Counted from the stretch's first letter, positions 34,162-63,883 are shown. The stretch: 64,000 bases of DNA from an uncultured Thermotogae bacterium (GCA_964558595.1 CAZLER010000001.1:39779-103778), one strand, 5' to 3'. Numbers and translations are program-made. The notes: generated by a model from the sequence alone, not told the origin.

Positions 34162-35283
34162 ATGAAGGGAGAGCCAATGGTCCCCCCGGTGGTCCATTCC
34201 GCGACCTACCGCTTCGGTACGAGCGCCGAACTCATCGATGTCGTCCAGCACCGCAGCGGCTACATCTACTCCCGCTGGGACAACCCCACCGTTCGCGAGA
34301 CGGAACGGCGACTCGCCGAGATCGAAGAGACCGAGGAGGCGGTCGCCTTCGCCTCTGGAATGGCGGCGATCACCAGTTCGATTCTCGCCCATGTGCGGCC
34401 CGGCGACCGGATCGCCGCGATCGCCACCTATGGGGAGACCGTCCGGTTCCTCGCCGACTACCTGCCGTCGATCGGCGTCGAGACCACCGTGCTCGGGGCC
34501 GACGAGGCCTCCGCCTGCCGGCAGATGCTCCAGCGGGGGGCGAAGCTGCTGTACCTGGAGTCGCCGATGAATCCGCTGCTGCGCGTACTCGATATCGAAG
34601 CGCTCGCCGTAGCGGCCCATGAAGGCGGAGCGCTCGTCCTGCTCGACGCCACCTTCGCATCCCCGGTCAACCTCCGCGCCCGACGTCTGGGCGCCGATGT
34701 GGTGCTCCACAGCGCCACCAAGTACCTCGGAGGTCACCACGATGTCACCGCCGGGGTCGCCTGCTGCAACGGGGAGATCGCTGAGCGCATCTGGAAGCTG
34801 CGCCGCATGCTCGGCGGCGTCCTCGATCCGACCCAGGCGTACCTGGTGTGGCGTGGCATGCAGACGCTCGATGTCCGAGTGGAGCGGCAAAATGCTTCGG
34901 CGGACCGGATCGCGCGTTGGCTGATCGAGCAGCCGGGGATCCGCGCCGTCCACTATCCCGGTCTGGACAGCCATCCCGACCATGCGCTGGCCGCTCGGCA
35001 GATGAGCGGCTTCGGCGGCATCGTCAGCTTCGAGCTGGAAGCGGACTACGAAACGACCGGGCGGTTCATGGACCAGCTACGGACGTTCAAGCTGGCCACC
35101 AGCCTGGGCGGGGTAACGAGCTTGGCCAACCAGTCGGTGACCAACACCCACGCATCGATGACGGATGCGGAGCGAGCGAAGGCCGGCATCGCCGACAGCC
35201 TCGTCCGGCTGTCCGTCGGTCTTGAGTCCATCGACGATTTGATCGCCGATCTCCGGCAGGCGCTCGAGGTCGCCGCCGGGTAA
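34162..35283 (+). CDS. Cys/Met-metabolism PLP-dependent enzyme (cystathionine gamma-synthase / methionine gamma-lyase family), second paralog
   Basis: 373 aa; HSATKYLGGHHD pyridoxal-Lys motif; RBS GGAGGTG. Confidence 0.85.
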   Translation: MKGEPMVPPVVHSATYRFGTSAELIDVVQHRSGYIYSRWDNPTVRETERRLAEIEETEEAVAFASGMAAITSSILAHVRPGDRIAAIATYGETVRFLADYLPSIGVETTVLGADEASACRQMLQRGAKLLYLESPMNPLLRVLDIEALAVAAHEGGALVLLDATFASPVNLRARRLGADVVLHSATKYLGGHHDVTAGVACCNGEIAERIWKLRRMLGGVLDPTQAYLVWRGMQTLDVRVERQNASADRIARWLIEQPGIRAVHYPGLDSHPDHALAARQMSGFGGIVSFELEADYETTGRFMDQLRTFKLATSLGGVTSLANQSVTNTHASMTDAERAKAGIADSLVRLSVGLESIDDLIADLRQALEVAAG

Positions 35284-48617: not shown

Positions 48618-49328
48618 ATGTCGTTCGTCAAGCTGTCCGACCCGACGAAACCTCGTCACGTCGTCGACCAGGTGCTGGAGGGGATCCGCGACGGATCGCT
48701 CAGTGCGGGGGAGCGGCTGCCGTCGGAGGCGAAGCTGGCGGAGCTCACGGGGGTGGGACGGACATCGGTCCGCGAGGCGCTGGCGGCCCTGCGGTTGATG
48801 GGGGTCATCGAGACGCGTGTCGGCGACGGGAGCTACGTCCGCGACACGGTCGGGACCGACGATGTGGCAAGCGGCATCGCCCGGGCGATCGCGCAATCGG
48901 AAGAGGCGATGCAGCTTCAGGAAGCACGGGCGGTGTTCGAGTGCGGGATGGTCCGCCTGGCAGCGGCGCGCTGGTCGCCGGAGAAAGCGACGACGTTTCG
49001 AGATCTCCTGTCGGACATGTCGACCTGCGTCGATGGTGAGTGTTATGAGCAGTACATTCGACTCCATCGCGACTTCCATCTTCGTCTCGCCGAGGCGACC
49101 GACAACGGGATCGTCGTGGCCACCGAGCGGAGCTTCCTCGAGACGATGGACCACGAAGGGTGGCAGGACATGGAGCGGCAGTTCTACCTTCCCAACCGGG
49201 CCGAGTACCTGCGCGAATCGGTCGACGAACACGCCGCGATCCTCGACGCCGTCGCCGCGGGTGATGGGGATGCCGCGTCGGTGCTGATGCACGCCCACTT
49301 TTCCAGACATGAGCGGACGGGAGGCTGA
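48618..49328 (+). CDS. GntR-family transcriptional regulator (FadR/FCD C-terminal domain)
   Basis: 236 aa; HTH ..LPSEAKLAELTGVGRTSVREAL.., FCD-type ligand domain. Confidence 0.8.
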   Translation: MSFVKLSDPTKPRHVVDQVLEGIRDGSLSAGERLPSEAKLAELTGVGRTSVREALAALRLMGVIETRVGDGSYVRDTVGTDDVASGIARAIAQSEEAMQLQEARAVFECGMVRLAAARWSPEKATTFRDLLSDMSTCVDGECYEQYIRLHRDFHLRLAEATDNGIVVATERSFLETMDHEGWQDMERQFYLPNRAEYLRESVDEHAAILDAVAAGDGDAASVLMHAHFSRHERTGG

Positions 49329-49329
49329 C

Positions 49330-51738
49330 ATGGAGGAGGCGGAATCCGCGATGCGTACAAGCGGTGCACAACTCCAGCCGGCGACAGGGGGGTGGCAGGT
49401 GGTCGGGCGCTCGTACCGCCGCAAGGACGGGAACGCCCGCGTCACCGGTCAGGAGCGGTACACGTCGGACATCGTCTTGCCGGGGATGCTGCACGGTCGG
49501 ATCCTGCCCAGTCCGCACGCTCACGCCGTCGTCCGATCGATCGACACGCGCAAGGCCGAAGCATTGGGAGCAACCGTCCTGACCTACGAGGACGTGCCGA
49601 AGCTGCGCTATAACGAGCGGATCATCACCATCCCGTCGGTGCTTCACAAGGACCATACCGTGCTCGCCGACAAGGTTCGCCGCGCCGGAGAAGCCGTCGC
49701 CGCCGTCGCCGCGGAGACCGAGGAGCTGGCCGAGCGGGCGGTGCAGGCGGTTCACGTCGAGTACGACGTGCTGCCGGCGATCACCGATCCATACGCGGCG
49801 ATGGCACCCGACGCCCCCACGATCTACGACACCGTGCTGTGGGGCGACGACGAGATCGCCATCGAGCGCAACATCGCCTGCGTACGCGCGGTCGAGGAAG
49901 GGGATGTCGAGACGGCATTCCGCGACGCGGACGTGGTGGTGGAGGGGACGTTTCGGCTGCCCAAGGTGTACCATGCCCAGCTGGAGACCAAGGGGTGCGT
50001 CTGTCGCCCCGAACCGAACGGCGGCCTGACCGTGTGGCCGACGACGCAGTCGATCCACAACGTCCGGATCCTGCTCGGGGAGATCTTCGGGATCCCGCTG
50101 TCCAAGATCGACGTCCGCCGGGTGCCCATCGGCGGGACGTTCGGCTCGAGCATCCAGATGAACTCGCCGATCCCGATCTGCGCCGCGCTGTGCCGAAAGG
50201 CCGGACGTCCGGTCAAGCTCGTCTATACCCGCGAGGAGGACGTCCACGACCACACGCGCTACGGATGTGCGATCGACCTCAAGCTGGCCGCCCGAGCGGA
50301 CGGCACCCTGCTCGGCGCCGAGATGGAACTCGTCGTCGACATCGGCGCGCACAACATCCAGGCGTACTCGTTCCTCGGCGTGTCGATCGGCTGGCTGGTC
50401 AGCCTGTACAAGCTTCCCCACCTCCGCTATCGGGGGACGGCGGTCTATACGAACACGGCGCCTTCGTGCGCGATGCAGGGATTCGGCAACCCCCAGGTGA
50501 CATTCGCCGCCGAGCAGCTGATCGACGAGCTGGCTGATCGAGTCGGCGTCGATCCGATCGAACTGCGGCGCAACAACTACGTCGGTCTCGGCGACAGCTT
50601 CTGGGGGCAGGGGCCGATGGTACGGTCGATCGTCCGGTCGGACGGTGTACCGGAGCTGCTCGACCGTGGGGCGCAGCAGATCGGATGGTCCAACCGAGCG
50701 GACCCGTCGAGCAAGGCGGGCCGGTACCGAAAAGGCCATGGCATGGCCCGCGGCTTCCACACCTCGAGCGCCGGAGCGCCGCAGCCCGGGGACGTCATCG
50801 ACTTCTCCGGCGCAATGGTCAAGGTGAACACCGACGGATCCCTCGACGTCGTCACCGCCCTGATGGATCACGGAGGTGGAACCCACGAGGCGATCGCCAA
50901 ACTGGTCGGCGAAGCGCTGTGCGTACCGTTTGACAAGGTGGAGGTCGTCCCGGTCGGGACCCAGACGACGGTGTACGACTGTGTCACGCATGCCACCCGC
51001 GGGGTGTACGCCGGCGGCGGAGCTGCGGTGAAGGCGGCGGAGACGCTGCGCGGGGAGATCATGGAAACGGCAGCCCGCTACCTCGATGTCTACCCCGACG
51101 CCCTCGAGCTGGAGCTCGACGCCGACGCAGGGCACACCGTGGTTCTTGCCCCGGCGATCCCCGACCGGACGATGACGCTCGGTGAGCTGGCGACGCGTTG
51201 CTGGTCGGAGAGCTGGAAGACGCTCGCCGCGGTGGAGAGCTTCCGCCCGACGAATTGCCCGCCGGCCTACGTCGCCGTGTTCCTCGAGGTCGAGGTCGAT
51301 ACATGGACCGGCCGGGTGCGGACGATCCGTGCGGTGATGGGCTCGGACTGCGGCACGGTCGTCAACCCGGCGATGGCCGTCGGCCAACTCGAGGGCGGGC
51401 TGTCCAAGGGGGTGGGCTACGCGCTGATCGAAGGATGCCGCTGGGATGGCGACGGGCGTCTGTCGTCGCGGGGGTCGCTTCTCGACGCGAAGATCGCCGC
51501 CTTCGGCGAGAGCCCTCCGGTCGATGGACTGGCGACGTTCTTCGCCGACAGCTATGAGCCGACGGGGCCGTTCGGGGCGAAGGGAATTGGCGAGGCGGCG
51601 ATGAATCCCGTCGCGGCGGCGTACGCCAACGCGATCGCCAACGCGATCGGCGCTCGGCTTGGCGAGCTGCCGATGACGCCCGAGCGGGTGCTCGAAGCGA
51701 TCGAGCGCTCCGAACCCACGGGGGGCGATCGACCATGA
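49330..51738 (+). CDS. xanthine dehydrogenase/aldehyde oxidase-family molybdopterin-binding subunit (set 1)
   Basis: ORF 49309..51738; ATG 49330 (RBS GGGAGG); c. 800 aa MoCo subunit with ..GGTFGSS.. and C-terminal ..GPFGAKGIGEA.. motifs. Confidence 0.85.
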   Translation: MEEAESAMRTSGAQLQPATGGWQVVGRSYRRKDGNARVTGQERYTSDIVLPGMLHGRILPSPHAHAVVRSIDTRKAEALGATVLTYEDVPKLRYNERIITIPSVLHKDHTVLADKVRRAGEAVAAVAAETEELAERAVQAVHVEYDVLPAITDPYAAMAPDAPTIYDTVLWGDDEIAIERNIACVRAVEEGDVETAFRDADVVVEGTFRLPKVYHAQLETKGCVCRPEPNGGLTVWPTTQSIHNVRILLGEIFGIPLSKIDVRRVPIGGTFGSSIQMNSPIPICAALCRKAGRPVKLVYTREEDVHDHTRYGCAIDLKLAARADGTLLGAEMELVVDIGAHNIQAYSFLGVSIGWLVSLYKLPHLRYRGTAVYTNTAPSCAMQGFGNPQVTFAAEQLIDELADRVGVDPIELRRNNYVGLGDSFWGQGPMVRSIVRSDGVPELLDRGAQQIGWSNRADPSSKAGRYRKGHGMARGFHTSSAGAPQPGDVIDFSGAMVKVNTDGSLDVVTALMDHGGGTHEAIAKLVGEALCVPFDKVEVVPVGTQTTVYDCVTHATRGVYAGGGAAVKAAETLRGEIMETAARYLDVYPDALELELDADAGHTVVLAPAIPDRTMTLGELATRCWSESWKTLAAVESFRPTNCPPAYVAVFLEVEVDTWTGRVRTIRAVMGSDCGTVVNPAMAVGQLEGGLSKGVGYALIEGCRWDGDGRLSSRGSLLDAKIAAFGESPPVDGLATFFADSYEPTGPFGAKGIGEAAMNPVAAAYANAIANAIGARLGELPMTPERVLEAIERSEPTGGDRP

Positions 51739-53267
51739 CGGCATCGGTCGGTGGGCGGCCCGCGGCGGCCGACGAGCGCAGCTGGCCGAACAGCCACCTC
51801 CTCGCCCATCGGTTTGCCTACCTGCGACCGGGATCGCTGATGCAGGCGGTGCGCGCGCTCGCCGAGCACGGGGACGGTGCACGGGCGATCGCCGGCGGCA
51901 CCGACCTGCTGGTGGCGATGAAGACGACACCGACGGCCCCTGCCGCCGGCGCGCCGTGGCCGCAGGGTCGGTCGTCGGGCGTGCCGGATCTCCTCGTCGA
52001 TCTCTCCGGTCTGTCCGAGCTGTCGACCCGGGCGCACGACGGGATCGACCTGCGGATCGGTGCGATCACCAAGATCCGCTCACTGGCGGTCGATCCCGAG
52101 CTGTGGGCCGAGCACAGCTGCCTCGCCGAGGCGGCCGCTTCGTTCGGCTCGACGCAGGTGGCGATGATGGGCACCCTGGGCGGGAACCTCGCCAACGGTT
52201 CTCCGGCGTCGGACACCGTCCCGGCGTTGGTCGCGCTCGGCGCCCACGTCGCGCTGGTCAACCCCGGAGGCGCCCGTCGGGTACCGATCGAGGAGATCCC
52301 GCTGCGACCCGGGCGGACGGCGATTCGTCATGACGAGCTGATCGCCGAAATCCAGATCCCGGCACCGAGGGACGGCACCGGCTCGGCTTTCCTCAAGCTA
52401 TCGCGCGTCTGCGCCGATCTGGCCAAGCTCTCGGTCGCCGTCTGGCTGGTGCGCGAGGGCGACAAGGTCGCCGAGGCGCGGATCGCGCTCGGATCGGTGG
52501 GTCCGACGGTCCTGCGCGCGGGCGGTGCGGAAGCGCTCCTCGCCGGGCAACCGTTCACCGAGGCGGCTGCGCTGGAAGCCGGGCGCGCCGCCGCCGAGGC
52601 GATCCAACCGATCGACGACCTTCGATCGACTGCGGAATACCGGCGCAAGGCTTCGGTGGCGCTCGTTCACGACGCCTGCGTGGCGGCGTGGCGTCGAACG
52701 GGGGAAGAACGATTGGCCGGCCGGCGCGGGGCCCCCGTCCCGCTGTTCGTGGTCCCCGAAGGCGCTTCGTTCCGCATCGGCCCCGCCGAGACGGCGCGGA
52801 TCGAACTCACGGTGAACGGTCAACGCCGCTCGCTCGACGTCGCCCCCAACGAGCTGCTGCTCAACGTGCTCCGCGATCGGCTCACGCTCACGGGCGCCAA
52901 GTACGGCTGCGGAATCGGCGAGTGCGGCGCGTGCACGGTGTGGATGAACGGCACCCCCGTGCTGGGCTGCCTGGTGCTCGCGGTGGCCGCGGACCATGCC
53001 GAGATCCGGACGGTCGAGGGGCTCGCCACGCCCGACGGTACGCTCGACCCGATCCAGCAGGCGTATCTGGAGGAGAACGCCTTTCAATGTGGCTACTGCA
53101 CACCAGGAATGCTGATGATGACCGAGAAGCTGCTCGAGGAGATCCCCGCCCCCCACGAAGACGAGATCCGCGACTACCTCAAGGGCAACCTGTGCCGTTG
53201 CACCGGCTACGCGAGCATCGTTCGAGCGGTCCGGCGTGCGGCGGGCGCCGACGGGGAGGGATGCTGA
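51735..53267 (+). CDS. fused FAD-binding (CoxM-like) + [2Fe-2S] (CoxS-like) subunit (set 1)
   Basis: 510 aa; N-terminal ..IAGGTDLLV.. FAD domain, C-terminal ..YGCGIGECGACTV..CGYCTPGM..CRCTGY.. ferredoxin and four-helix 2Fe-2S motifs; ATGA overlap with upstream Mo subunit. Confidence 0.8.
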   Translation: MTASVGGRPAAADERSWPNSHLLAHRFAYLRPGSLMQAVRALAEHGDGARAIAGGTDLLVAMKTTPTAPAAGAPWPQGRSSGVPDLLVDLSGLSELSTRAHDGIDLRIGAITKIRSLAVDPELWAEHSCLAEAAASFGSTQVAMMGTLGGNLANGSPASDTVPALVALGAHVALVNPGGARRVPIEEIPLRPGRTAIRHDELIAEIQIPAPRDGTGSAFLKLSRVCADLAKLSVAVWLVREGDKVAEARIALGSVGPTVLRAGGAEALLAGQPFTEAAALEAGRAAAEAIQPIDDLRSTAEYRRKASVALVHDACVAAWRRTGEERLAGRRGAPVPLFVVPEGASFRIGPAETARIELTVNGQRRSLDVAPNELLLNVLRDRLTLTGAKYGCGIGECGACTVWMNGTPVLGCLVLAVAADHAEIRTVEGLATPDGTLDPIQQAYLEENAFQCGYCTPGMLMMTEKLLEEIPAPHEDEIRDYLKGNLCRCTGYASIVRAVRRAAGADGEGC

Positions 53268-53346
53268 TGGGACGACCGCTCGGCACGGGGATCCCCAGGC
53301 GAAGCGATGCCCGGAGGGCTTCGTCGACGGCTCCAAAGGAGGCGCC

Positions 53347-54228
53347 ATGACCTTGCCGACGTTCGGCCTGATCCAGCCGGAAACGTTGCCCAAGGCGTTG
53401 AGGCAGCTCGAGGAGACGCCGGCGGCAGCACCGATCGCCGGCGGGACGTGTCTGCTCGTCGAGCTGCGGAAGCGCGCCATCATGTCAGACGACTTGCTCG
53501 ACCTGTCGCGGATCCGCGAGCTGCGTCAGATTCGCATCGAGGGTGATGAGCTTGTGCTCGGCGCCACGGCGACCATCGCGGATGTGCTCGACAGCACGGC
53601 GGTGCGGGACCACGCGCCGGTGCTCTACGAAGCCTGCAGGACGTTCGCCGCGCCGTTGATCCGCAACCGGGCCACGGTGGGCGGCAACCTCGCACACGGG
53701 TCACCGGCAGCGGACACCGCGCCGCCGCTGTTGCTGTACGACGCGATGGTGGAACTCCAGGCGCACGGACGGAAGCGCCTGATGCCGCTGAACCGCTTCT
53801 TCGCCGGACCGTGCACCACCAACCTCCGTCCGGGGCATCTGGTGACGGCGATCCGGCTCCCGATCGAGGGGGCGCCCGCGCGCTGGACGTACGAGAAGCT
53901 GAGGCTGCGCCAAGCGGGCGCGATCAGCGTCGCCAGCGTCGCCGTCCTGTCCCGCCCGGGAGACGATGGCGGAACCGAGACTCGCATCGCCTTGGGAGCC
54001 GTGGCCCCGACACCGATCCGGGCATGGGACGCGGAGGAGGCGCTGCGGGGTGTGACGCTGTCGGACCATGTCATCGAGGTCGCCGCGACGATCGCCGCCG
54101 AAGAGACCCGTCCGATCACCGACATCCGCGGCACCGCCGACCACCGCCGCCGAGGGGTCAAGATCCTGCTACGTCGGGCGCTCACGCGACTGATGGAGCA
54201 ATACCAGGAGGAGACCGATGCAGCCTAG
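53347..54228 (+). CDS. FAD-binding subunit of XDH/CODH-family molybdoenzyme (set 2)
   Basis: ORF 53236..54228; ATG 53347 (RBS AAAGGAGG); ..PIAGGTCLLVEL.. FAD-binding. Confidence 0.8.
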   Translation: MTLPTFGLIQPETLPKALRQLEETPAAAPIAGGTCLLVELRKRAIMSDDLLDLSRIRELRQIRIEGDELVLGATATIADVLDSTAVRDHAPVLYEACRTFAAPLIRNRATVGGNLAHGSPAADTAPPLLLYDAMVELQAHGRKRLMPLNRFFAGPCTTNLRPGHLVTAIRLPIEGAPARWTYEKLRLRQAGAISVASVAVLSRPGDDGGTETRIALGAVAPTPIRAWDAEEALRGVTLSDHVIEVAATIAAEETRPITDIRGTADHRRRGVKILLRRALTRLMEQYQEETDAA

Positions 54229-54790
54229 AGAGGTCCAACTTCACGTCAACGGCCAGGTTCACGCCGTCCACCTCCCGCCCAACGCCACCCTCCTCGAGGC
54301 GCTGCGCGAGCTCGGGTACACGGACGTCAAGAACGGCTGTGAGCAGGGCGACTGTGGAGCGTGTGCGGTGCTGCTCGACGGGAGGGCGGTCAACAGCTGC
54401 TTGGTCCTCGCCTGGCAAGCGGAGGGCCTCGAGATCGTCACCGACAGCGGTTTGGGAACGATGGACTCGCCGCATCCGATCCAGGAGGCGTTCGCCGACA
54501 CCGGGGCGATCCAGTGTGGTTTCTGCACCCCCGGGATGATCGTGGCCACCAAGGCGCTGCTCGATCGCGTCCCGAACCCAACCGAGGAGGAGATCCGAGA
54601 AGCGCTATCGGGGAATCTCTGCCGATGCACCGGATACGGTCAGATCGTGGAGGCGGTGGCGTCAGCGGCCAAGCGGCTCCGGGCGTCGGCGTCGGGCCCC
54701 GGGAAGCCGGCCGTCTCGGAAGTCGATACGGCGCCCGCGGACCGGCACCAGCGTGCACAACGTGATGCTTCGGAAGGTGAACCGTCGTGA
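54218..54790 (+). CDS. (2Fe-2S)-binding small subunit (set 2)
   Basis: 190 aa; ..CEQGDCGACAV.., ..CGFCTPGM.., ..CRCTGY.. Confidence 0.85.
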   Translation: MQPREVQLHVNGQVHAVHLPPNATLLEALRELGYTDVKNGCEQGDCGACAVLLDGRAVNSCLVLAWQAEGLEIVTDSGLGTMDSPHPIQEAFADTGAIQCGFCTPGMIVATKALLDRVPNPTEEEIREALSGNLCRCTGYGQIVEAVASAAKRLRASASGPGKPAVSEVDTAPADRHQRAQRDASEGEPS

Positions 54791-57129
54791 ACGATGTGAC
54801 CCCCAAGCCGTTGCCCTCCGTGGAGCTCCCCCCGCTCCGGCAAGTCGGCCGCCCGCTGAGGAGGGTCGACGCCTTGGGAAAGGCCATCGGCGCGACGAGG
54901 TACGCCGCCGACTTCTCGATGCCCAGAATGCTCCACGCCAAGGTGTTTCGCAGCTGTCGCCCTCACGCGCGGATCCTCCGCCTCGACGTGGACCGCGCGA
55001 GGGCGCTGCCGGGGGTCGCCTGTGTGCTCACCGGTGAGGACGTCCGGGGGGCGAAGCTGAATACCGACCTGCCGGGGCAGACGGGCCGGGAAGCGCGCGC
55101 CGGGTCGGATGCGCCGGTGCTCGCCCTCGACACCGTTCGCTACGTGGGCGAACCGATCGCCCTCGTCGCTGCGGAGACCCCCGCCATCGCCGAAACGGCG
55201 CTCGAGCGAATCGCCGTCGACTACGAGGATCTCCCGGCGGTGTTCCATCCGGAGGCCGCCCTGCGGCCGGGAGCACCGATCCTGTTCGAGCCGGACAACG
55301 TCGTCTCCCGATACACCGTTCGCAAGGGCGACCTCGATGCCGGCATGGCGCAGGCCGATCGGATCGTCGAGAACACGTTCCGAATGCCGTTCGTCGAACA
55401 CGCTTATCTCGAGCCGGACGCCGGGGTGGGGTGGATCGACGACCAGGGAGTCATCAACCTCCGGGTGGCCACCCAGGTCGTCGAACATTTCCGCTCGGTG
55501 GCCCAGGCGCTGGGGGTGCCGCAGCACAAGATCCGGGTGCGGGGGACGATGGTCGGCGGCGGGTTCGGCAGCAAGGAGGACGTCACTGTCGAGATCTTCC
55601 TCGCCTTCCTCACCCGCGAAACCGGCCGTCCGGTCAAGCTCGTGTACACTCGCGAGGAGGCGTTCCTCGCCACGTCGAAGCGGCATCCGTTTACCATCAC
55701 CCACCGCACCGGCGTGAAGAGCGACGGTCGAATCACCGCGGCGCAGATCCGCATGGTGGCCGATTCCGGCGCCTATCCCTACCTGACGCCGTACGTCCTC
55801 CTGTACGCCACCGGGATGGCCACCGGTCCGTACCGGATCGACAACGTGCACGTCGACTCCATCGCGGCAGCGACGAATCAGCCGTTCACCAGCGCCTTTC
55901 GCGGCTTCGGCGGTCCGCAGGCGGCGCTCGGGTACGAGCAACAGATGGACGCGATCGCCGCGGAGCTGGAGATCGACCCGCTGGAGCTACGGCGGATCAA
56001 CTACCTGCGAACGGGGGAGACCACGTGTACCGGTCAGAAGCTCGCGTCGGCCGCATGGTCCGAGGAGTGCGCAACCCGTGTCCTGCACGCCCTCGGCGAT
56101 CGAACACCGGGAAGCGGCACCAGGAAGGTCGGCCGGGGGCTGGCCAACACCTTCCAGAGCTACGGGCGGATCATGTGGTTCCGCGACACGTCCCGGGCGT
56201 GGGTCGGCGTCGAGCTGGACGGTACGGTGGTCATCCGCTGCGGCGTACCCGACCTCGGCGCCGGCCAGTCGAACTCGTTGTGCCAGCTCGCCGCCGAGAT
56301 CCTCGGCGTTCCCCTCGACCGGGTCACGATCTACGCCACCGATTCCGCGGTCACCCCGCTCGCCGGCACCTCAACGGCAACCCGGCAGCTGTACATGTCG
56401 GGTAACGCCGTGTGCACAGCGGCGAATGCCGTCCGAGGCCGGCTGGTTCACCGCGCCGCCGAGGAGCTGGGGGCGGACGAGGGCGCGATCGTCCTCGGCG
56501 ACGGAAGGGCGTTCGTCCCGGGCAGCGACACGGTGTCCATCGACCTCGCCGACCTGGCGAGACGTTGCGCAGCGGAGGGCATCGAGCTGTCCCAACTGGC
56601 GCAGTTCAACGCCCCGTTCACCGACGGTCTCGACCCGGAGACCGGACAGGGCGACATCTGGCCGGACTTCACCTTCGGCGCCGTCGCCGCCGAGGTCGCT
56701 GTCGACGTGGAGACCGGGCAGATCGAGCTGCTGAAGTGCGCTGCCGCGCATGACGTCGGTCGGGCGATCAACCGGGCGGCGGTGGTGGGACAGATCGCAG
56801 GCGGAACCCATCAGGGCCTCGGCTACGCGTTGATGGAGGAGTTTGCCCTCGACAACGGTCACGTGAGGACGCCGTCGTTCGCCGAGTACCTGATCCCGAC
56901 ATCCGTCGATTTCCCGTCGACCGAGGTGTTCGTCCTGGAATCGGGAACCGGCGTTGGGCCGTTCGGAGCCAAGGGGATCGGGGAGCCGGCGTTGACCCCG
57001 GCGGCTCCCGCGGTGGCCAACGCCGTCGCCGACGCGCTCGGCGTCCGGATCCATGAGCTGCCGATGACTCCCGAGCGCGTGCTGCAGGCGATCGACGAGG
57101 CGGAACGAGAGGGAAGAGCCCACGGATAG
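54787..57129 (+). CDS. xanthine dehydrogenase/aldehyde oxidase-family molybdopterin-binding subunit (set 2)
   Basis: 780 aa; GTG start overlapping upstream stop (GTGA); same family as 49330..51738. Confidence 0.85.
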   Translation: MNDVTPKPLPSVELPPLRQVGRPLRRVDALGKAIGATRYAADFSMPRMLHAKVFRSCRPHARILRLDVDRARALPGVACVLTGEDVRGAKLNTDLPGQTGREARAGSDAPVLALDTVRYVGEPIALVAAETPAIAETALERIAVDYEDLPAVFHPEAALRPGAPILFEPDNVVSRYTVRKGDLDAGMAQADRIVENTFRMPFVEHAYLEPDAGVGWIDDQGVINLRVATQVVEHFRSVAQALGVPQHKIRVRGTMVGGGFGSKEDVTVEIFLAFLTRETGRPVKLVYTREEAFLATSKRHPFTITHRTGVKSDGRITAAQIRMVADSGAYPYLTPYVLLYATGMATGPYRIDNVHVDSIAAATNQPFTSAFRGFGGPQAALGYEQQMDAIAAELEIDPLELRRINYLRTGETTCTGQKLASAAWSEECATRVLHALGDRTPGSGTRKVGRGLANTFQSYGRIMWFRDTSRAWVGVELDGTVVIRCGVPDLGAGQSNSLCQLAAEILGVPLDRVTIYATDSAVTPLAGTSTATRQLYMSGNAVCTAANAVRGRLVHRAAEELGADEGAIVLGDGRAFVPGSDTVSIDLADLARRCAAEGIELSQLAQFNAPFTDGLDPETGQGDIWPDFTFGAVAAEVAVDVETGQIELLKCAAAHDVGRAINRAAVVGQIAGGTHQGLGYALMEEFALDNGHVRTPSFAEYLIPTSVDFPSTEVFVLESGTGVGPFGAKGIGEPALTPAAPAVANAVADALGVRIHELPMTPERVLQAIDEAEREGRAHG

Positions 57130-57380
57130 CCCCGAGGATCACGGAGAAAGGCGGAACCGCCAAGGCTCGCTGTCGGCAACCGCTCGAGAGGAACATCCAG
57201 TGACGAAGGACAGGAACAGGACGAACACGCTCGCCCCGCACGGACACGGAAGGCGGACATCCCCCGCGGGTTCTCCGTGCCCATGCACGGCCCACGAGGG
57301 CACCGCAGCTGCGTCGGTGCGTAGGACGAGGTACTTCGTGCCAGGTTCAGCGCTTGCTCGCAGGACACCGTCGATCTTCT

Positions 57381-57675
57381 CCCCTTGGCGGCCCCCGCAC
57401 CTTGGCAAGGGCTCAGCGGTTCCGGGGAACGAACGCACCGGCGCCTTGCCGTTGATGTCCCCTCGTCCTCGTTCCTCTCAGCGCCCTCCGCGCCTCCGCG
57501 AGAGACCCGAAGTCCCCGACAACGAACGAAGTCGATGCCTTCCGTTGTCCTTGCCCTCCACCATTCCCCCTTGGCGTGCTGTGCGCCTTGGCGAGAGACC
57601 CGCCGTCTCCAACGAAGAAGGAAGGGGTTGCTTGCGCCCGAGATTCGCCCTTGTTCGTTTCCCCGAGCGCACCCC
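57381..57675. repeat. three degenerate c. 85-105-bp tandem repeats, each beginning with duplicated CCTTGGCG / CCTCCGCG motif
   Basis: units c. 57381-57482, 57483-57565, 57566-57675 share CCTTGGCG-N9-CCTTGGC(A/G)AG(G/A)G, GCGAGAGACCCG, AACGAA(C/G)(G/A)AAG, GC(C)TT(G)C; a more decayed fourth unit is possible at c. 57170-57260; whole 57130-57723 intergenic is gene-free. Confidence 0.5.
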
Positions 57676-57723
57676 CGCGTCTCTGCGAGCGTCACCGCGG
57701 ACCAGGATCGGAAGAGATACCGA

Positions 57724-59619
57724 ATGACACGACGAATCCTCACCGGAAACCAAGCCGTTGCCGCCGCAGCTCTGACCGCCGGCGTTCGCGTTGTCACCGG
57801 GTACCCGGGGACGCCGTCGACCGGATGCCTCGAGGCGCTGCTGCCGATGGATCTCCCCGATCGCCACGTCGAATGGTCGACCAACGAGAAGGTGGCGTTC
57901 GAGATCGCCACGGGTGCGGCCTGGGCGGGGCACCGTGCCCTGTGCACGATGAAGATGACCGGGGTCAACGTCGCCTTCGATGCGCTGATCTCGGTCGCCT
58001 ACTCCGGGACCCGCGGCGGGCTCGTCGTCTACGTGGCCGACGATCCCGGCGTCAGTGCCGGCATGGCGGAACAGGATACGCGCGGGTTCGCCCGCATCGC
58101 CCACCTCCCGATGCTCGAGCCGTCGACCCCGAGGGAGGCGTACGCGTTCGCACGGGCCGCGTTCGAGCTGTCGGAGGCGGTAGGAGCCCCCGTGTTCGTT
58201 CGCCTCACCACGGCGATTGCCCTGGGCCACGCGTTCGTCGACGTCGACGAGCCAACGGCGCCGCGCGCGATTGAGCCGATCCTCGAGAAAGACATCGCGC
58301 GCTACACCAAGGCCGGTGCCGCCATCTGTCGCGCCCAACACGAAGCATCGATCGAGCGGCTGGCAGCGGCCCGGACTTGGATCCGCGAGGCGGGGTTCCA
58401 CCGCCTGGAGGGCGGCGCGACGGCGCGCCGACTGGGTGTCGTCGTCTGTGGCGCCGTCGGAACGTACCTGGACGAGGTGCTCGACGCGGCGCGAACCGAT
58501 GATGACCTCGACGCCGACCCGGCGGTGCTGCGCACCGCAGCTGTCGTTCCGTTTCCCACCGAGGAAGCGTCCCAGCTGCTCGACGGCTGCGATACCCTGC
58601 TCGTCCTCGAGGAACTCGAGCCGTACGCTGAGCAGGAGCTGTACGTGCTCGCCCAGCAACGCCGTTGGAACGGTCGGATTGTCGGCAAGCTCGACGGAAC
58701 GCTCCCTCGCAGTGGCGAGTATTCGGTGGCCGAAATCCTCCGGGGCATGACGGCCTGCAGTCCGCGCATCCTGAACCGCGGCGATGTCGCGCCCGCCGCG
58801 CCTCGCGAGCCGCAGTCCGCGGCCGCCGCAGCGCGCCCGATCACCGTATGCGCCGGATGTCCGCATCGCGGCACCTATCTCGCCATCGACGCCGCCATCC
58901 GCCAAGCCGGATACGCAAAGGACGAGGTGATGGTGACCGGCGACATCGGGTGCACCATTCTCGGCATGAACCCGCCGTTCGAACTCTTATGGAATGAGGT
59001 GTCGATGGGCTCGAGCGTCGGCTTGGCCCAGGGAACCGTGCACGCCGGGGGGTCCACGCCGGTGATCGCCACGATCGGCGACTCGACGCTGTTCCACGGC
59101 GGGCTCCCAGCGTTCGTCAACGCCGTTCACCATCGGGTGCCGTTGGTGGTGGTGGTGCTCGACAACGGCTGGACCGCCATGACCGGAATGCAGGTCAATC
59201 CCGGCACCGACGAGGCACAGCAGACCGGTGACCGGCGGATCGATCCCGCGGCGGTGCTCCGGGGGATCGGGGTCGATCGATGCGTCACGGTCGACCCGTA
59301 CGATCTCGAAGCGACGACCGAGGCGATTGCCACCTCGTTGCGGCGTTCAGCAGGCGTGAGCGCAGTGATCGCGCGCCGCGAGTGCGCGGTGCAGGCACGC
59401 CGCCATGGCGCTCCGACAACGCACATCTCCGTCGATCCGGAGCGGTGCACACGGTGTGGTCGATGCCTGCGCGCCACCGGCTGCCCGGCCCTTTCGATGA
59501 CTGCGGCGGGCGGCAGATCCGAGCGCAGCGTGGCGGTGGATCCCGCGCTGTGCAACGGATGCGGATTGTGCGTGCCGTTCTGTCCCACCGGAGCCCTGAG
59601 GAAGGAGGCCTCCGAATGA
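57724..59619 (+). CDS. iorA: indolepyruvate:ferredoxin oxidoreductase alpha subunit
   Basis: ORF 57385..59619; ATG 57724; TPP-binding 2-oxoacid:ferredoxin oxidoreductase with C-terminal 2x[4Fe-4S] (CTRCGRC.. CNGCGLC). Confidence 0.85.
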   Translation: MTRRILTGNQAVAAAALTAGVRVVTGYPGTPSTGCLEALLPMDLPDRHVEWSTNEKVAFEIATGAAWAGHRALCTMKMTGVNVAFDALISVAYSGTRGGLVVYVADDPGVSAGMAEQDTRGFARIAHLPMLEPSTPREAYAFARAAFELSEAVGAPVFVRLTTAIALGHAFVDVDEPTAPRAIEPILEKDIARYTKAGAAICRAQHEASIERLAAARTWIREAGFHRLEGGATARRLGVVVCGAVGTYLDEVLDAARTDDDLDADPAVLRTAAVVPFPTEEASQLLDGCDTLLVLEELEPYAEQELYVLAQQRRWNGRIVGKLDGTLPRSGEYSVAEILRGMTACSPRILNRGDVAPAAPREPQSAAAAARPITVCAGCPHRGTYLAIDAAIRQAGYAKDEVMVTGDIGCTILGMNPPFELLWNEVSMGSSVGLAQGTVHAGGSTPVIATIGDSTLFHGGLPAFVNAVHHRVPLVVVVLDNGWTAMTGMQVNPGTDEAQQTGDRRIDPAAVLRGIGVDRCVTVDPYDLEATTEAIATSLRRSAGVSAVIARRECAVQARRHGAPTTHISVDPERCTRCGRCLRATGCPALSMTAAGGRSERSVAVDPALCNGCGLCVPFCPTGALRKEASE

Positions 59620-60218
59620 GCTGCGACATCGTGGTGGTCGGAATCGGAGGGCAGGGGGTGGTGACGATCGGCGATCTCCTCCTGCGCAGCGCGTTCGAAA
59701 CCGACCTGCCGGCCTCGTTCTGCCCCACCAAGGGGATGGCGCAGCGGGGCGGATTCGTCAAGGTGGAGTTGCGCCTCGGCCGGGAACGGGCTGGGCCGAG
59801 AATCGGCGATGGGGCCGCCGACCTGGTCGTTTCGCTGGAGCGCTCGGAGTCACTAAGGGCACTCCGCTACGTCCAGGCAGGGGGCTCGTTCCTCCTCTTC
59901 GACGACGTATGGGAGCCCACGCACGTCATGCTCGGCGTGGACCCGTATCCGAGCCGCCGGCAGGTCGTCGCGGAGATCGTGCAGGTTGCCGAAACGGCCA
60001 TCGTCCTCGACCCGGCCCAGCGCCCGGAGGCCGACGGTCATCCTGTCGCAGCCAACGTCTACGTCCTCGGAGCGATGCTCGCCGTTCCCGCGTTGAGCCG
60101 GATCCTCGACGCAGCGGCCGTCGAACGGGTCGTCGCCGAGCGGTGGCCGAACGCGGCCGATGCGAACCGCACCGCCCTGCATGCAGGAAGGGAGCGGATC
60201 CACCGTGAACTGGGCTGA
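59616..60218 (+). CDS. iorB: indolepyruvate oxidoreductase beta subunit
   Basis: ORF 59280..60218; ATG 59616 after RBS GAAGGAGG, ATGA overlap with iorA; ..IVVVGIGGQGVV.. pyruvate/ketoisovalerate oxidoreductase gamma-like domain. Confidence 0.8.
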   Translation: MSCDIVVVGIGGQGVVTIGDLLLRSAFETDLPASFCPTKGMAQRGGFVKVELRLGRERAGPRIGDGAADLVVSLERSESLRALRYVQAGGSFLLFDDVWEPTHVMLGVDPYPSRRQVVAEIVQVAETAIVLDPAQRPEADGHPVAANVYVLGAMLAVPALSRILDAAAVERVVAERWPNAADANRTALHAGRERIHRELG

Positions 60219-62250
60219 GGCGCTGTTTCGACCGCGAGCAGTGGCCGTCTACGGCTCCGCCCGCCCCGGCAAGATCGGTCGTGTCCTGGTCGATCACCTC
60301 CTCGATGGCGGCTATCGAGAGGTCGTCGTGGTCAATCCACGGGCCGAGGGCACCGAGCACGCCGGCGGCGTGCGATCGCTCGACGAGCGCTTGCCTGAGG
60401 CCCCGCCGGTCGATCTCGCCGTGGTCGCCACCCCGGCGCCCACCGTCGAGGCCGTGGTCGCGGACGCGGGAGGGGCCGGGGTAGCGGTCGCCGTCGTCAT
60501 CACCGCCGGCTTCGCGGAGGCCGGCGATGCCGACGCCGAGGGGCGGCTACTCCGCACGGCGGCGTCGCACGGGATCCGTCTGGTCGGCCCGAACTGCGCC
60601 GGAATCGTCAACACCAAGCATCACCTGTACCCGACGTTGGAGACCCGCCCTCCGTGCGGTGACGTCGCATTCGTGTCGCAAAGCGGAGCGCTCGGCGGCG
60701 CCGTGTTGTCGTGGGCCGAACAGCAGGGACTCGGCTTCTCCAAATTCATCTCCTATGGCAACGCGATCGATCTCACCGATGTCGACTTCCTCGATATGCT
60801 GCGCGACGACGACGAGAGCCGTGTGGTCGCCGTCTACCTGGAGACCGTGTCCGACGGACGCCGATTCCTCGAAATCGCCGGCCGCCTGGCCGAAGTGAAA
60901 CCGCTCGTCGTCATCAAGTCCGGCCGATCGTCTGCCGGTGGCCGTGCCACTCGATCCCACACCGGCTCGTTGGCGGGAGAAGACGCGGTGTTCGACGCCG
61001 CCCTCCGGCAAGCCGGCGCCCTCCGCGTCGACGGCATCGAGGAGTTGTTCGATCTGTGCCGGGGATTCGTCGCCCTCCCCCGAATCGGCGGTCGCCGGTT
61101 GGCGATCGTGACCAACGCGGGCGGGCCCGCCGTCCTGGCCGCCGATCGTGCCGAGGCGTGCGGGCTGCGGGTCGATCCTCCCTCTGCTACGCTGCGTCGG
61201 CGGCTGGCGGATCGACTGCCTCCTTTCTGCGGCATCGACAATCCATTCGACCTCACCGTGCAAGCGTCAGGGGACACCTACCGCGACGTGCTGCTCGAGA
61301 CGCTCGCCGAGGCCGACGCGGCGTTGGCGATCAACGTGAACACACCGTACCTGGACGCCGCCACCATGGCGGAAGGGGTCGTCTCCGCCGCGGCACGGAC
61401 CGGAAAGCCGATCGTTGCGTCGTTTCTTGCCGGACGGCCAGCGGAAGCGGCGCTTCCGGTTCTGCACGATGGCGGGGTACCGAACTTCGCCACCGGCGAG
61501 CGTGCCGTGCGGGTGCTCGCTCGGATGGCGCGTGAAGGTGACGCGAAGCGCCCGGCAAACCGCACGCCCGACCGTCATGCCGCGCAGCCGTTGCCGTGGA
61601 CGCGGAGCCCGCTGGAACCGGAGGCGATGGAATGGCTCGCCGAGCTGGGGTTTCCGGTGCTCGGTCGCCGGTGGGCTGCCACCGAGGAGGCGGCGGCGGC
61701 CGCGGTGCGAGAATTCGGGGGTCCGGTGGCGATGAAGGTCGTCAGTCCGGACCTCCTCCACAAGTCCGATGTCGGCGGGGTGCAGCTCAACGTCGGCCCC
61801 GACGCGGTCTCGGCCGTCTTCCGTGAGCTACGCGCCCTCGCCGACGGCGCGTCGTTCCACGGCGTCCTCGTCACCCCGATGGTCGCCGACGCCGTCGAGA
61901 TGCTCGTCGGCGTTTCGCGCGATCCGCAGTTCGGCCCGGTCATCGCCTGCGGAATCGGCGGAATCCACGCCGAGATGCTTGCCGACGTCGCCTTGCGGGT
62001 GGCCCCGGTCCCCCGGGAAGAAGCACGATCGATGGTCGATGATCTGCGCGGCGCGAGCCTCCTGCGCGGCGTCCGGGGTCAACCCCCCCGGGATCTCGAC
62101 GCCCTCGCCGAGCTGATCGCGGGCGTGTCCGAACTCCCGTTCCGTTTTCCGACAATCGCCGAACTCGACCTCAACCCGGTCTTCCTGTTCGACGCCGGGT
62201 TGCGCCTCGCCGACGTCCGCATCCTCCTCGGGGACGAGCCGGCAACGTAG
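60205..62250 (+). CDS. ADP-forming acyl-CoA synthetase (acetyl/aryl-CoA synthetase, fused alpha-beta; NDP-forming)
   Basis: ORF 60160..62250; GTG 60205 after RBS GGAAGGGAG; CoA-binding ..AVYGSARPGKIG.., succinyl-CoA-synthetase-like and ATP-grasp domains. Confidence 0.8.
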   Translation: MNWAEALFRPRAVAVYGSARPGKIGRVLVDHLLDGGYREVVVVNPRAEGTEHAGGVRSLDERLPEAPPVDLAVVATPAPTVEAVVADAGGAGVAVAVVITAGFAEAGDADAEGRLLRTAASHGIRLVGPNCAGIVNTKHHLYPTLETRPPCGDVAFVSQSGALGGAVLSWAEQQGLGFSKFISYGNAIDLTDVDFLDMLRDDDESRVVAVYLETVSDGRRFLEIAGRLAEVKPLVVIKSGRSSAGGRATRSHTGSLAGEDAVFDAALRQAGALRVDGIEELFDLCRGFVALPRIGGRRLAIVTNAGGPAVLAADRAEACGLRVDPPSATLRRRLADRLPPFCGIDNPFDLTVQASGDTYRDVLLETLAEADAALAINVNTPYLDAATMAEGVVSAAARTGKPIVASFLAGRPAEAALPVLHDGGVPNFATGERAVRVLARMAREGDAKRPANRTPDRHAAQPLPWTRSPLEPEAMEWLAELGFPVLGRRWAATEEAAAAAVREFGGPVAMKVVSPDLLHKSDVGGVQLNVGPDAVSAVFRELRALADGASFHGVLVTPMVADAVEMLVGVSRDPQFGPVIACGIGGIHAEMLADVALRVAPVPREEARSMVDDLRGASLLRGVRGQPPRDLDALAELIAGVSELPFRFPTIAELDLNPVFLFDAGLRLADVRILLGDEPAT

Positions 62251-62267
62251 AAGAGAGGAGTGCCTCG

Positions 62268-63371
62268 ATGTCCCCTACCGTCCGACCGCAACGAGGGCTC
62301 GACGCCATCCGTCCGTACGTGCCCGGCAAGCCGATCGAGGAGCTGATGCGAGAGCAGGGCATCGAGGACGTCATCAAGCTGGCATCGAACGAGAATCCGT
62401 TGGGCGTATCGCCCAAGGCGCTTCAAGCGATCCGCGACGCCGCCGCCCACGTGCACCGGTACCCCGATGCCCGCAGCCATGACCTGCGATCGGCGATCGG
62501 CGACCGGTTCGGGTTCTCCCTCGATCAGGTCGCCGTCGGCAACGGGGCGGACGATCTCATCCTGCAGCTGTCGATGGCCTACCTCGAGGACGGCGACGAG
62601 GTGGTGATCAGCCGCTCATCGTTCCCGATCTACGACGGCTACGCCGCGGCGATGCGGGCGACGATCGTCAAGACGCCGCTCGCCCCCGGCTACCGGATCG
62701 ACCTCGATCGGATGGCGGATGCGATCTCCGAACGCACCCGGATCGTCGTCGTGTGCAACCCCAACAATCCCACCGGAACCATCGTACCCATCGGCGCATT
62801 CGACGCCTTCATGGACCGGATCCCCCAGCACGTGCTGATCGTCGTCGACGAAGCGTACGTGGAGATGGTCGATTCCGATGTCTTCCCCGATGCCGCGGAG
62901 CGGGTGCGCGACGGCATGCCGAACCTGCTCGTGTTGCGTACGTTCTCCAAGGTGTATGGGCTGGCCGGACTTCGGCTTGGCTATGCCTTCGGGGAGCCGA
63001 CGACGATCGCCGCCCTCCTGCGGGTGAAGACGGTGTTCAACGTGAACGTCCTCGCTCAGGCCGCCGGCATCGCCGCCCTCCACGATGATGACTTCCTCCG
63101 TCGATCGGTGGAGGCCAATCGGCGCGGACGTCACCAGCTGATGGCCGCGTTCACCAGGCTCGGGCTGGAGTACGCCGACAGCCACACGAATTTCGTGCTC
63201 GTCCGGGTCGGTCCGGCCGATCCCATCTACCGACGTCTACTCGAACGCGGGATCATCGTACGTCCCTGCGCCCCCTACGACCTACCCGAATTCCTTCGGA
63301 TCACCGTCGGTACACCGGAACAGAACGACCGGCTGATTGCCGCGCTCGAACAGCTGCTCCCCCCGACATGA
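62268..63371 (+). CDS. histidinol-phosphate/aromatic amino acid aminotransferase (class II, HisC family)
   Basis: 367 aa; ..KLASNENPLG.., PLP-Lys ..RTFSKVYGLAGLRLGY.. Confidence 0.8.
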   Translation: MSPTVRPQRGLDAIRPYVPGKPIEELMREQGIEDVIKLASNENPLGVSPKALQAIRDAAAHVHRYPDARSHDLRSAIGDRFGFSLDQVAVGNGADDLILQLSMAYLEDGDEVVISRSSFPIYDGYAAAMRATIVKTPLAPGYRIDLDRMADAISERTRIVVVCNPNNPTGTIVPIGAFDAFMDRIPQHVLIVVDEAYVEMVDSDVFPDAAERVRDGMPNLLVLRTFSKVYGLAGLRLGYAFGEPTTIAALLRVKTVFNVNVLAQAAGIAALHDDDFLRRSVEANRRGRHQLMAAFTRLGLEYADSHTNFVLVRVGPADPIYRRLLERGIIVRPCAPYDLPEFLRITVGTPEQNDRLIAALEQLLPPT

Positions 63372-63883
63372 ACGGAGGCGTGCGAGGCGATCCCGCTCCT
63401 GAACTCGTGACGCTCTCCTCACGCCACGTCCCGGAGATGCTGCGGATCTTCAACCACTACGTCGCTGCAGGGTTCGCGGCGTATCCCGAGCAGCCGCTGT
63501 CGGAATCGTCCATCGTCCGTTTCCTGGAGGACGCGGCGAACCACCCGAGGGTGGCGGCCGAGGCGTCGGGCGGACAGCTGCTCGGGTTCGGCTTCCTCCG
63601 TCCTTATTCGACCTATCCCACGTTCTCCCACACTGCCCTGCTGACGGTGTTCCTCGATCCGTCGCAGCGCCGTCGCGGCCTCGGCAGTGCCATCCTCGAG
63701 GCGCTCGAGGACGGGGCGCGCTCCCGTGGGATCGCGGTTCTGCTTGCACATATCTCCTCACGCAACCCGGACAGTCTGGCATTTCACGCTGCCCGCGGCT
63801 TCGTCGCGTGCGGACGTTTTCCCGGCATCGGGCGCAAGCACGGTGTGGCGTTCGACATCGTGTGGATGGTCAAGACGCTGTAG
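63368..63883 (+). CDS. GNAT N-acetyltransferase (phosphinothricin/amino-acid acetyltransferase-like)
   Basis: 171 aa; acetyl-CoA motif ..QRRRGLGSAILEAL..; ATGA overlap with aminotransferase. Confidence 0.75.
   Translation: MNGGVRGDPAPELVTLSSRHVPEMLRIFNHYVAAGFAAYPEQPLSESSIVRFLEDAANHPRVAAEASGGQLLGFGFLRPYSTYPTFSHTALLTVFLDPSQRRRGLGSAILEALEDGARSRGIAVLLAHISSRNPDSLAFHAARGFVACGRFPGIGRKHGVAFDIVWMVKTL

Follow-up and report, generated by a model that had tools for sequence, protein, structure and literature searches.

We found that the 594-nt gap upstream of iorA (57130-57723, + strand) in a 64,000-nt stretch of DNA from an uncultured Thermotogae bacterium (the window) is non-coding intercistronic DNA. 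It probably stems from a dispersed intergenic repeat family, the 3′ module of which was tandemly amplified and has since decayed. The gap carries about 3.4 head-to-tail copies of a 93-bp module, and a dedicated control region is a less likely explanation for this array than a side effect of repeat-driven duplication within the operon. The reading accounts for the one 594-bp gap among 11 genes that otherwise abut, and it leaves this operon for aromatic amino-acid fermentation with one fewer candidate regulatory region, riboswitch or small protein. The locus itself is of modest interest; the repeat family to which it points deserves a systematic survey.

The gap is bounded by the stop codon of an XDH-family Moco subunit gene (54787-57129) and by the iorA ATG at 57724. 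According to the ORF map and Pfam, every gene from 48618 to 63883 lies on the + strand and abuts or overlaps its neighbour, and 57130-57723 is the single long gap of the operon. The encoded proteins are a GntR/FCD regulator at the operon head (48618-49328), two XDH-family subunit sets, iorA and iorB, an ADP-forming acyl-CoA synthetase, an aminotransferase and a GNAT acetyltransferase. The two XDH-family sets follow each other 5′ of iorAB (49309-57129), the first consisting of a Moco subunit and a fused FAD/2Fe-2S protein and the second of separate FAD, 2Fe-2S and Moco subunits; the regulator gene overlaps the first set, an arrangement kept in relatives. The iorA start (57710-57726) comprises a ribosome-binding site, GGAAGAGA (57710-57717), and the ATG (57724-57726), and the resulting N-terminus agrees with those of homologues. 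The GC content of the window is 68%. The MAGs nearest to it carry the label Candidatus Bipolaricaulota or, in the binchicken set, "Thermotogae", with identities of 80-83% for the XDH subunit and 61-68% for iorA. The "uncultured Thermotogae bacterium" MAGs L001, L002, L004 and L006 (GC 65-67%) have the operon in common with Bipolaricaulota MAGs, with XDH proteins 74-83% identical, and the Thermotogae label therefore looks doubtful.

Self-comparison of 57371-57680 yielded one sharp peak, at a lag of 93, with an identity of 0.52 compared to about 0.33 at other lags and a maximum of 0.43 across 500 shuffles. The original prediction had placed a degenerate tandem array here and had proposed self-comparison as its check; the periodicity is significant and the array is real, while the predicted period of about 95 bp becomes exactly 93. 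A repeat search recovered three in-register copies, spaced by 93 and 93 nt, that are 60-71% identical across their first 65 nt. Over whole ungapped units the identity is 0.54-0.59, compared to 0.276 ± 0.046 (maximum 0.48, 5000 trials) for out-of-register segments of the gap. The repeat is too degenerate for TRF, which did not detect the array, and nhmmer found no other copy of the unit within the 64-kb window.

The three full units, the minimum number that had been predicted, occupy 57375-57467, 57468-57560 and 57561-57653 on the + strand; the second boundary had first been drawn about 9 nt away, and every one of the ordered motif blocks described for the array is found in it. Each unit contains an arm, in which three 8-9-mers that terminate in GCG or GCA precede AG(A/G)G(A/C)C; the octamers ending in GCG are CCTTGGCG, CCTCCGCG or TCTCTGCG, with AGAGAC next. 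The arms read CCTTGGCG GCCCCCGCA CCTTGGCA AGGGC in unit 1 (57383-57412), CTCTCAGCG CCCTCCGCG CCTCCGCG AGAGACCCG in unit 2 (57476-57509) and CCTTGGCG TGCTGTGCG CCTTGGCG AGAGACCCG in unit 3 (57569-57602). A partial fourth copy (57654-57693, + strand) consists of the arm only (CCCGAGCG CACCCCCGCG TCTCTGCG AGCGTC); it was recognized in alignments A1 and A3 and by a match to the arm HMM, and when aligned with the head of unit 2 it shows about 72% identity and a single indel (hand count, alignment A1). A decayed fourth unit had instead been suspected at about 57170-57260, where identity is at background (0.19-0.37), as it is in the other segments upstream of 57375; the extra copy lies downstream. 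The four arms start at 57383, 57476, 57569 and 57662, in exact 93-nt steps. This spacing, a multiple of 3, has been kept with zero net indel despite a divergence of about 45%.

The two halves of the gap differ in composition. The 3′ half is C-rich (C 129, G 89), and the 5′ half (57130-57340) has a strong excess of A over T (skew +0.55) and 11 GGA trinucleotides, compared to 5.3 ± 1.9 expected; 11 were reached in only 7 of 2000 shuffles. Just 3′ of the XDH stop codon are purine-type octamers, CACGGAGAA, AGGCGGAA and CCGCCAAGG (57141-57166, + strand), which are a weak counterpart of the 5′ arm found in relatives; one of them, CCGCCAAGG, is exactly complementary to the CCTTGGCGG of unit 1. An A-rich purine tract, GAGAGGAACA...GACGAAGGACAGGAACAGGACGAACA (57186-57228, + strand; AT skew +0.55), is similar to the purine-rich middle part of the L001 and L091 elements. 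When the 5′ octamers were paired in calculation with each arm, the duplex energies stayed inside the range of shuffles, with unit 3 as a marginal exception, and a closing hairpin within the window was rejected on these grounds.

We rejected the gap as coding DNA. Its codon-position GC is flat (0.65-0.68), compared to 0.8-0.9 at position 3 of the flanking genes, and the differences between units have no codon-position bias. The 175-aa ORF that runs across the array (57200-57727, + strand) has no Pfam domain and, in an exhaustive HMMER search of 1.84 billion representative proteins, zero homologues at E ≤ 0.001. Consequently, its repeated peptide pattern is, as had been proposed, the DNA repeat translated, and we judged that it is not a gene. 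One stop-free frame per strand spans the gap; such a frame occurs in 4.6% (+ strand) and 2.2% (minus strand) of local-composition shuffles, and this particular + frame in 1.5%. The first start codon of the ORF is 70 nt past the XDH stop, and the overlap of its TGA with the iorA ATG arises only because iorA has A as the first base of its second codon.

The same DNA was evaluated for RNA structure, with negative results throughout. The fold of the whole gap is no better than that of its shuffles (z +0.5), and individual units on both strands range from z -1.3 to +1.1. Covariation analysis of the three units, one of the checks that had been recommended, gave an alifold consensus with a covariation term of only -0.22 kcal/mol. 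Searches of Rfam returned nothing relevant in the window at E up to 10, and no match for the arm elements of eight arm-bearing loci at E up to 1. Repeated structured RNA elements, one of three explanations originally offered for the array, were therefore rejected. Scanning the gap revealed neither a sigma-70-like promoter nor an intrinsic terminator. The array is also not CRISPR-like, as stated at the outset: its 93-nt units are degenerate and lack spacers, and cas domains are absent among the neighbouring genes scanned (window genes from 43 kb onward). A tRNA-derived element was rejected because ARAGORN was negative in ten arm-bearing loci. Likewise, the lone viral match is a chance one inside coding sequence, and no similarity to plasmids was found; viral and plasmid origins were set aside.

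A comparison of relatives shows that the XDH-iorA synteny is constant, while the spacer ranges from 3 bp to 2.8 kb, a variability that the original prediction had proposed to check. The spacer is 3 bp in L087, about 15 bp in L003 and L004, 102 bp of unrelated sequence in L083-L085, 160-165 bp in L002 and L082, at least 235 bp in L081, 245 bp in L001 and L086, 594 bp in the window and 2.8 kb, with an antitoxin gene and heptamer arrays, in L005. In L001 and L002, the spacer starts directly past the stop codon with purine-type octamers (TGAACCGCAGAGG.CGCRGAGA...) and ends, 32-35 nt 5′ of iorA, with their complement (CTCTGCG.CTCTGCG); in folding calculations the two ends pair, closing the spacer with a stem of about 30 bp. 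The pre-iorA arm is common to the window, L001, L002 and L081, with its end 32-36 nt before the iorA start, and the partial fourth copy in the window occupies the position equivalent to the lone arm of the other three. Moreover, the last 106 nt of the L001 spacer align to one full window unit with 64% identity (E 0.007 in 1.68 Mb; also alignment A3). This single-copy module is flanked by AGAGAGACC and GCGAGAGAC, which are a plausible substrate for tandem duplication. TIR-like arms are present in L001, L002 and L033, and L003, L004 and L087 have empty sites. None of the junctions compared has a visible target-site duplication.

In L001, a second operon junction (2644-3040), 3′ of a paralogous XDH Moco subunit gene, is also expanded. 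It holds three copies of CATGAAGGG, arrays of the CGCAGAG type and another two GAACCGCAGAG / GAACCACGAAG motifs; its counterpart in L082 is a 4-bp overlap. The 2.8-kb insert at the XDH-iorA junction of the Bipolaricaulota MAG L005 (6740-9590) contains a gene for an antitoxin of the MqsA/SocA-Panacea type (minus strand; Pfam) and, upstream, a 128-aa ORF without a domain; 7-mer arrays (GTSCGCR) and GGGTTCGTT-type repeats flank the insert. The first 45 nt of the L081 contig, as held in ENA, are Illumina adapter sequence (ACACTCTTTCCCTACACGACGCTCTTCCGATCT), indicating that this assembly is contaminated at the contig end.

The arm is not confined to this operon. As the building block of the repeat family, it consists of two or three tandem 8-9-nt repeats with the core CTYNGYG, followed by AGAGAC(CCG). 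We scanned metagenomes with the 20-mer common to units 2 and 3 (GCGCCTYSGCGAGAGACCCG) and obtained 41 loci, many of which are chance matches in coding sequence. By reading, about 15 of the 41 have one or two additional upstream octamers outside the query, and several have an inverted partner. Loci retrieved solely through the iorA protein (L033, L040, L045 and L087) contain arms as well; in L033, an Anaerolineae, they lie in the iorA-iorB spacer. The contigs that bear them belong to Pirellula (L119, by a 100% protein match), Anaerolineae and Bipolaricaulota-like organisms, where arms are multi-copy and intergenic: L119 has six in 2.6 kb, and L091 and L108 have three sites each. An HMM built from 27 arms of other loci scores highest in the 64-kb window where units 3 and 2 begin and next at the fourth copy, a result that is partly circular because some of its source loci were found with a window-derived pattern. 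When the HMM is built from the protein-fetched loci alone, three of its top 10 matches fall in the array, all on the + strand, compared to about 0.03 expected by chance; the individual arm scores are weak (E 3-11). An arm-like match at 34312-34336 (minus strand) lies in coding-like sequence and looks like chance.

Elsewhere, arms often form inverted pairs with regular hairpins. Folding of seven such pairs gave z-scores between -2.4 and -10.5, with six no higher than -4.4, and their 7-bp helices are interrupted by one or two mismatched bases every 8-9 nt. Across loci, the octamer types co-vary within pairs: CGCAGAG/CTCTGCG, CACGGAG/CTCCGTG, CGCCAAGG/CCTTGGCG and CACAGAAGG/CCTTCTGTG. In L106 (3003-3132), one hairpin is nested within another, CGCCAAGG/CCTTGGCG inside CACGGAG/CTCCGTG (MFE -90.5 kcal/mol, z -10.5). 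The arm of unit 2 is 97% identical to that of L109 over 33 nt, and the arm of unit 3 is 88-91% identical to those of L089, L115, L119 and others over 34-42 nt, so that both are nearer to arms of unrelated organisms than to their neighbour in the array (73%, hand count). This could be due to constraint, homogenization or independent insertion. Tandem duplication around arms is directly visible in L119, where a 140-nt element is duplicated with a 160-nt period and 99% identity, and where a second duplication (255/263 nt) takes in the 3′ end of the upstream gene, its copies differing by one octamer. The core of the 140-nt element contains GGTTCGATCCTACTTCGAACCA (L119:1355-1380 and 1515-1540), which resembles a tRNA T-arm plus 3′ end, and ARAGORN calls no tRNA there. 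Genes of the GxxExxY family (TIGR04256) have octamer arms on both sides in two unrelated contigs (L119:865-1260 and L097:1193-1590, both minus strand). We rejected this nuclease as the mobilizing gene, since it adjoins arms in only two of about 12 distinct contigs and is absent from the window and from the other arm-bearing loci searched.

Based on these comparisons, we propose the following sequence of events, the order of which is inferred because no relative in the databases exceeds 68% iorA identity. One inverted arm pair would have entered the ancestral XDH-iorA junction, with a purine-type arm past the XDH stop, a purine-rich middle and a pyrimidine-type arm about 35 nt before iorA. In the window lineage, the 3′ module would then have been amplified head to tail to about 3.4 copies, probably by slippage or unequal recombination between short GAGAGACC repeats like those flanking the single-copy module of L001. 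The copies would later have diverged to 54-59% identity while the octamers inside each arm stayed homogenized, and the 5′ arm would have decayed, such that the window copy no longer forms the closing hairpin. We think that the resulting array has no dedicated regulatory role and that it mainly serves to keep iorA apart from the cistrons upstream. Should some part of it be functional, that part would be the last arm, which lies at a conserved distance from the iorA start. The data neither demonstrate nor call for a specific regulatory function.

Several observations run counter to this sequence of events. The window has no convincing 5′ arm or stable hairpin, and pure neutral decay predicts something other than an exact 93/93/93-nt arm spacing at about 45% divergence. 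The weak individual scores of the independent HMM and the lack of a further copy in the 64 kb also count against it, as do the arms that are nearer to those of unrelated organisms and the fixed distance to iorA. These last two features, the unchanged spacing and the stop-free frames leave room for constraint, for instance if the C-rich arms act at the RNA level or are recognized by a conserved protein, which we consider possible if unlikely.

The alternatives differ in how the array arose and in what it would do. The one we take most seriously, while still finding it doubtful, is an RNA-level control element in the operon transcript, namely a rut site, an RNase processing site or a protein platform that sets the XDH:iorA ratio, with the GGA-rich 5′ half and the C-/U-rich arms as its actors; the arms contain CCUCC, the pentamer of the 16S rRNA anti-Shine-Dalgarno. 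Rho prefers C-rich, unstructured RNA, and the 3′ half is both C-rich and folded at shuffle stability. The enrichment of GGA, the arms that in relatives form a duplex between the stop codon and the ribosome-binding site, the conserved distance of the last arm from the start codon and the purine-type octamer arrays that directly follow stop codons in many operons all favour such an element, as do the short tandem repeat (STRR) hairpins of the cyanobacterial hupS-hupL spacer, which have been suggested to affect transcripts (PMC2670836). Against it, the units have no conserved structure (z near 0), and equally close relatives have junctions of 3-15 bp, indicating that the operon needs no such element. 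These short junctions, together with the recurrence of the arm in unrelated genomes, also make unlikely the array of regulator-binding sites for the aromatic amino-acid operon that was originally offered as a second explanation. In its specific form, an operator array for a transcription factor of the iorAB-acd genes such as the GntR/FCD regulator, it would fit direct repeats upstream of iorA, a GntR-family gene at the operon head and the fixed position of the last arm. However, the same arm sequence adjoins unrelated genes in other phyla, the gap has no sigma-70-like promoter, and GntR/FadR operators are short palindromes rather than octamer arrays; we regard this form as very unlikely.

The array could also have grown by separate, adjacent insertions of mobile-element copies of about 93 nt, rather than through tandem copying of a segment already in place. 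Units 2 and 3 indeed have arms of different octamer subtypes (CCTCCGCG and CCTTGGCG), each with near-identical counterparts elsewhere, and the nested hairpins of L106 show that one element can insert into another. Separate insertions are nevertheless improbable: the similarity continues in register through the non-arm part of the units (AACGAACGAAG, GCCTTCCGTTG) at an exact 93-nt spacing, which favours amplification of a resident segment, target-site duplications are not visible, and young segmental tandem duplications are directly seen in L119. Least probable, to the point of being nearly negligible, is that the 175-aa ORF is translated and that ribosomes are carried across the spacer to the iorA start through the ATGA overlap. 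The stop-free frame, the period divisible by 3, the GAGAGGAA 6 nt before the GTG start, the overlap itself and the description of MIRU ORFs as overlapping neighbouring genes (PMC3184786) would agree with translation. But a minus-strand frame is likewise stop-free, the ATGA overlap also exists in relatives without a spacer, the L001 spacer has no equivalent ORF, and neither the composition, nor the unit differences, nor the homology searches bear the mark of a protein. The most probable reading remains a decayed, tandemly amplified member of a dispersed repeat family. Among the three explanations first put forward, a decaying minisatellite comes nearest to it; that description is incomplete because the unit is not locus-specific, its arm motif recurring in unrelated genomes and gene contexts.

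We compared the array to known repeat systems and found that it belongs to the general class of intergenic repeat elements and to no named family, because the defining features of STRR, REP and MIRU are not all present. STRRs are short tandem oligomers with 7-bp units, intergenic or intercistronic, found many times per cyanobacterial genome and of unknown function; their hairpins between hupS and hupL are one example (PMC2670836). The arms are similarly intergenic or intercistronic with hairpin potential (XDH-iorA and iorA-iorB junctions). Unlike the STRRs, their repeats measure 8-9 nt, with a conserved AGAGAC(CCG) box at the end, and true 7-mer arrays were seen only in L005; their hosts are Bipolaricaulota-like organisms, Anaerolineae and Pirellula instead of filamentous cyanobacteria, and the window adds a higher-order 93-bp repeat.

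REPs are lineage-specific, and REP/REPIN sequences are associated with a RAYT (Y1 transposase) gene; the arm sequence, in contrast, is common to several phyla. REP, BIME and REPIN sequences are described as abundant, extragenic and often intercistronic, with inverted pairs that form hairpins and with filled and empty sites (PMC3116915, PMC3184786). Inverted arm pairs likewise form hairpins in other genomes (six of seven at z -4.4 to -10.5) and in L001 and L002, and several arm sites per contig occur elsewhere. The window differs in having its arms in one orientation only (gap z +0.5) and at this locus only within 64 kb. Furthermore, a single arm is a direct octamer array whose units fold at shuffle level, unlike the palindromic REP monomer.

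MIRU-type VNTRs number about 40-50 loci per genome, with a copy number that varies between strains, and the BOX elements of Streptococcus pneumoniae consist of end modules and a middle module in variable repeat number. The former, in Mycobacterium, are tandem units in operon spacers, with an ORF touching a flanking gene and with filled and empty sites (PMC3184786). The window has the same architecture, compared here by description: tandem units of 40-100 bp (93 bp, about 3.4 copies) in an operon spacer of a high-GC genome, co-oriented with the genes. Unlike MIRU, whose ORF overlaps both flanking genes, its ORF overlaps the downstream gene alone; it is a single locus in 64 kb, and its copies are old (54-59% identical) instead of a young, variable array. 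The mobility, transcription and predicted structures of BOX elements have also been covered (PMC3184786). The arm elements are similarly modular, intergenic and able to fold, while their sequence and hosts are unrelated to those of BOX and the repeated module includes one end arm. The TIR-like arms and the empty sites in relatives might suggest a MITE, a type of element with terminal inverted repeats, target-site duplications and a cognate transposase; the 5′ arm of the window is weak, and no duplication is visible at the junctions.

The element family looks undescribed, with the window locus as a degenerate example; a literature search by sequence words and by topic found no description of the arm. 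It is a short repeat type of poorly studied phyla, distinguished by its position at cistron boundaries, its unusually regular hairpins and its capacity to seed local tandem duplications. Arm-type repeats can break assemblies, create spurious ORFs and possibly alter expression ratios within operons. A bolder reading, which we hold only tentatively, is that arms ending in GCGAGAGAC(CCG) mark a cross-phylum family of hairpin elements with a conserved recognition enzyme. Such a family would span Planctomycetota, Chloroflexota and Bipolaricaulota-like organisms and would prefer cistron boundaries. A near-identical arm across genomes of 50-72% GC would then point to recognition by a conserved enzyme, either a mobilizing nuclease or an RNA-processing factor, and the exact 93-nt spacing of the four window arms would reflect a maintained multi-site platform and not decay.

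Tandem 7-9-mer arrays are common at cistron boundaries in the phyla of the Bipolaricaulota-like, Anaerolineae and Pirellula hosts, and in many operons purine-type octamer arrays immediately follow the stop codon. Arrays of this type, on the sense strand, fill the iorA-iorB spacer in Chloroflexota MAGs (L047:1908-2045, L034:11957-12060 and L050:10245-10350). The array of L034 consists of (ACCACGC)n and then its own partial complement, and that of L047 repeats GCRGAGGA about 14 times, like a run of Shine-Dalgarno-like sequences before iorB.
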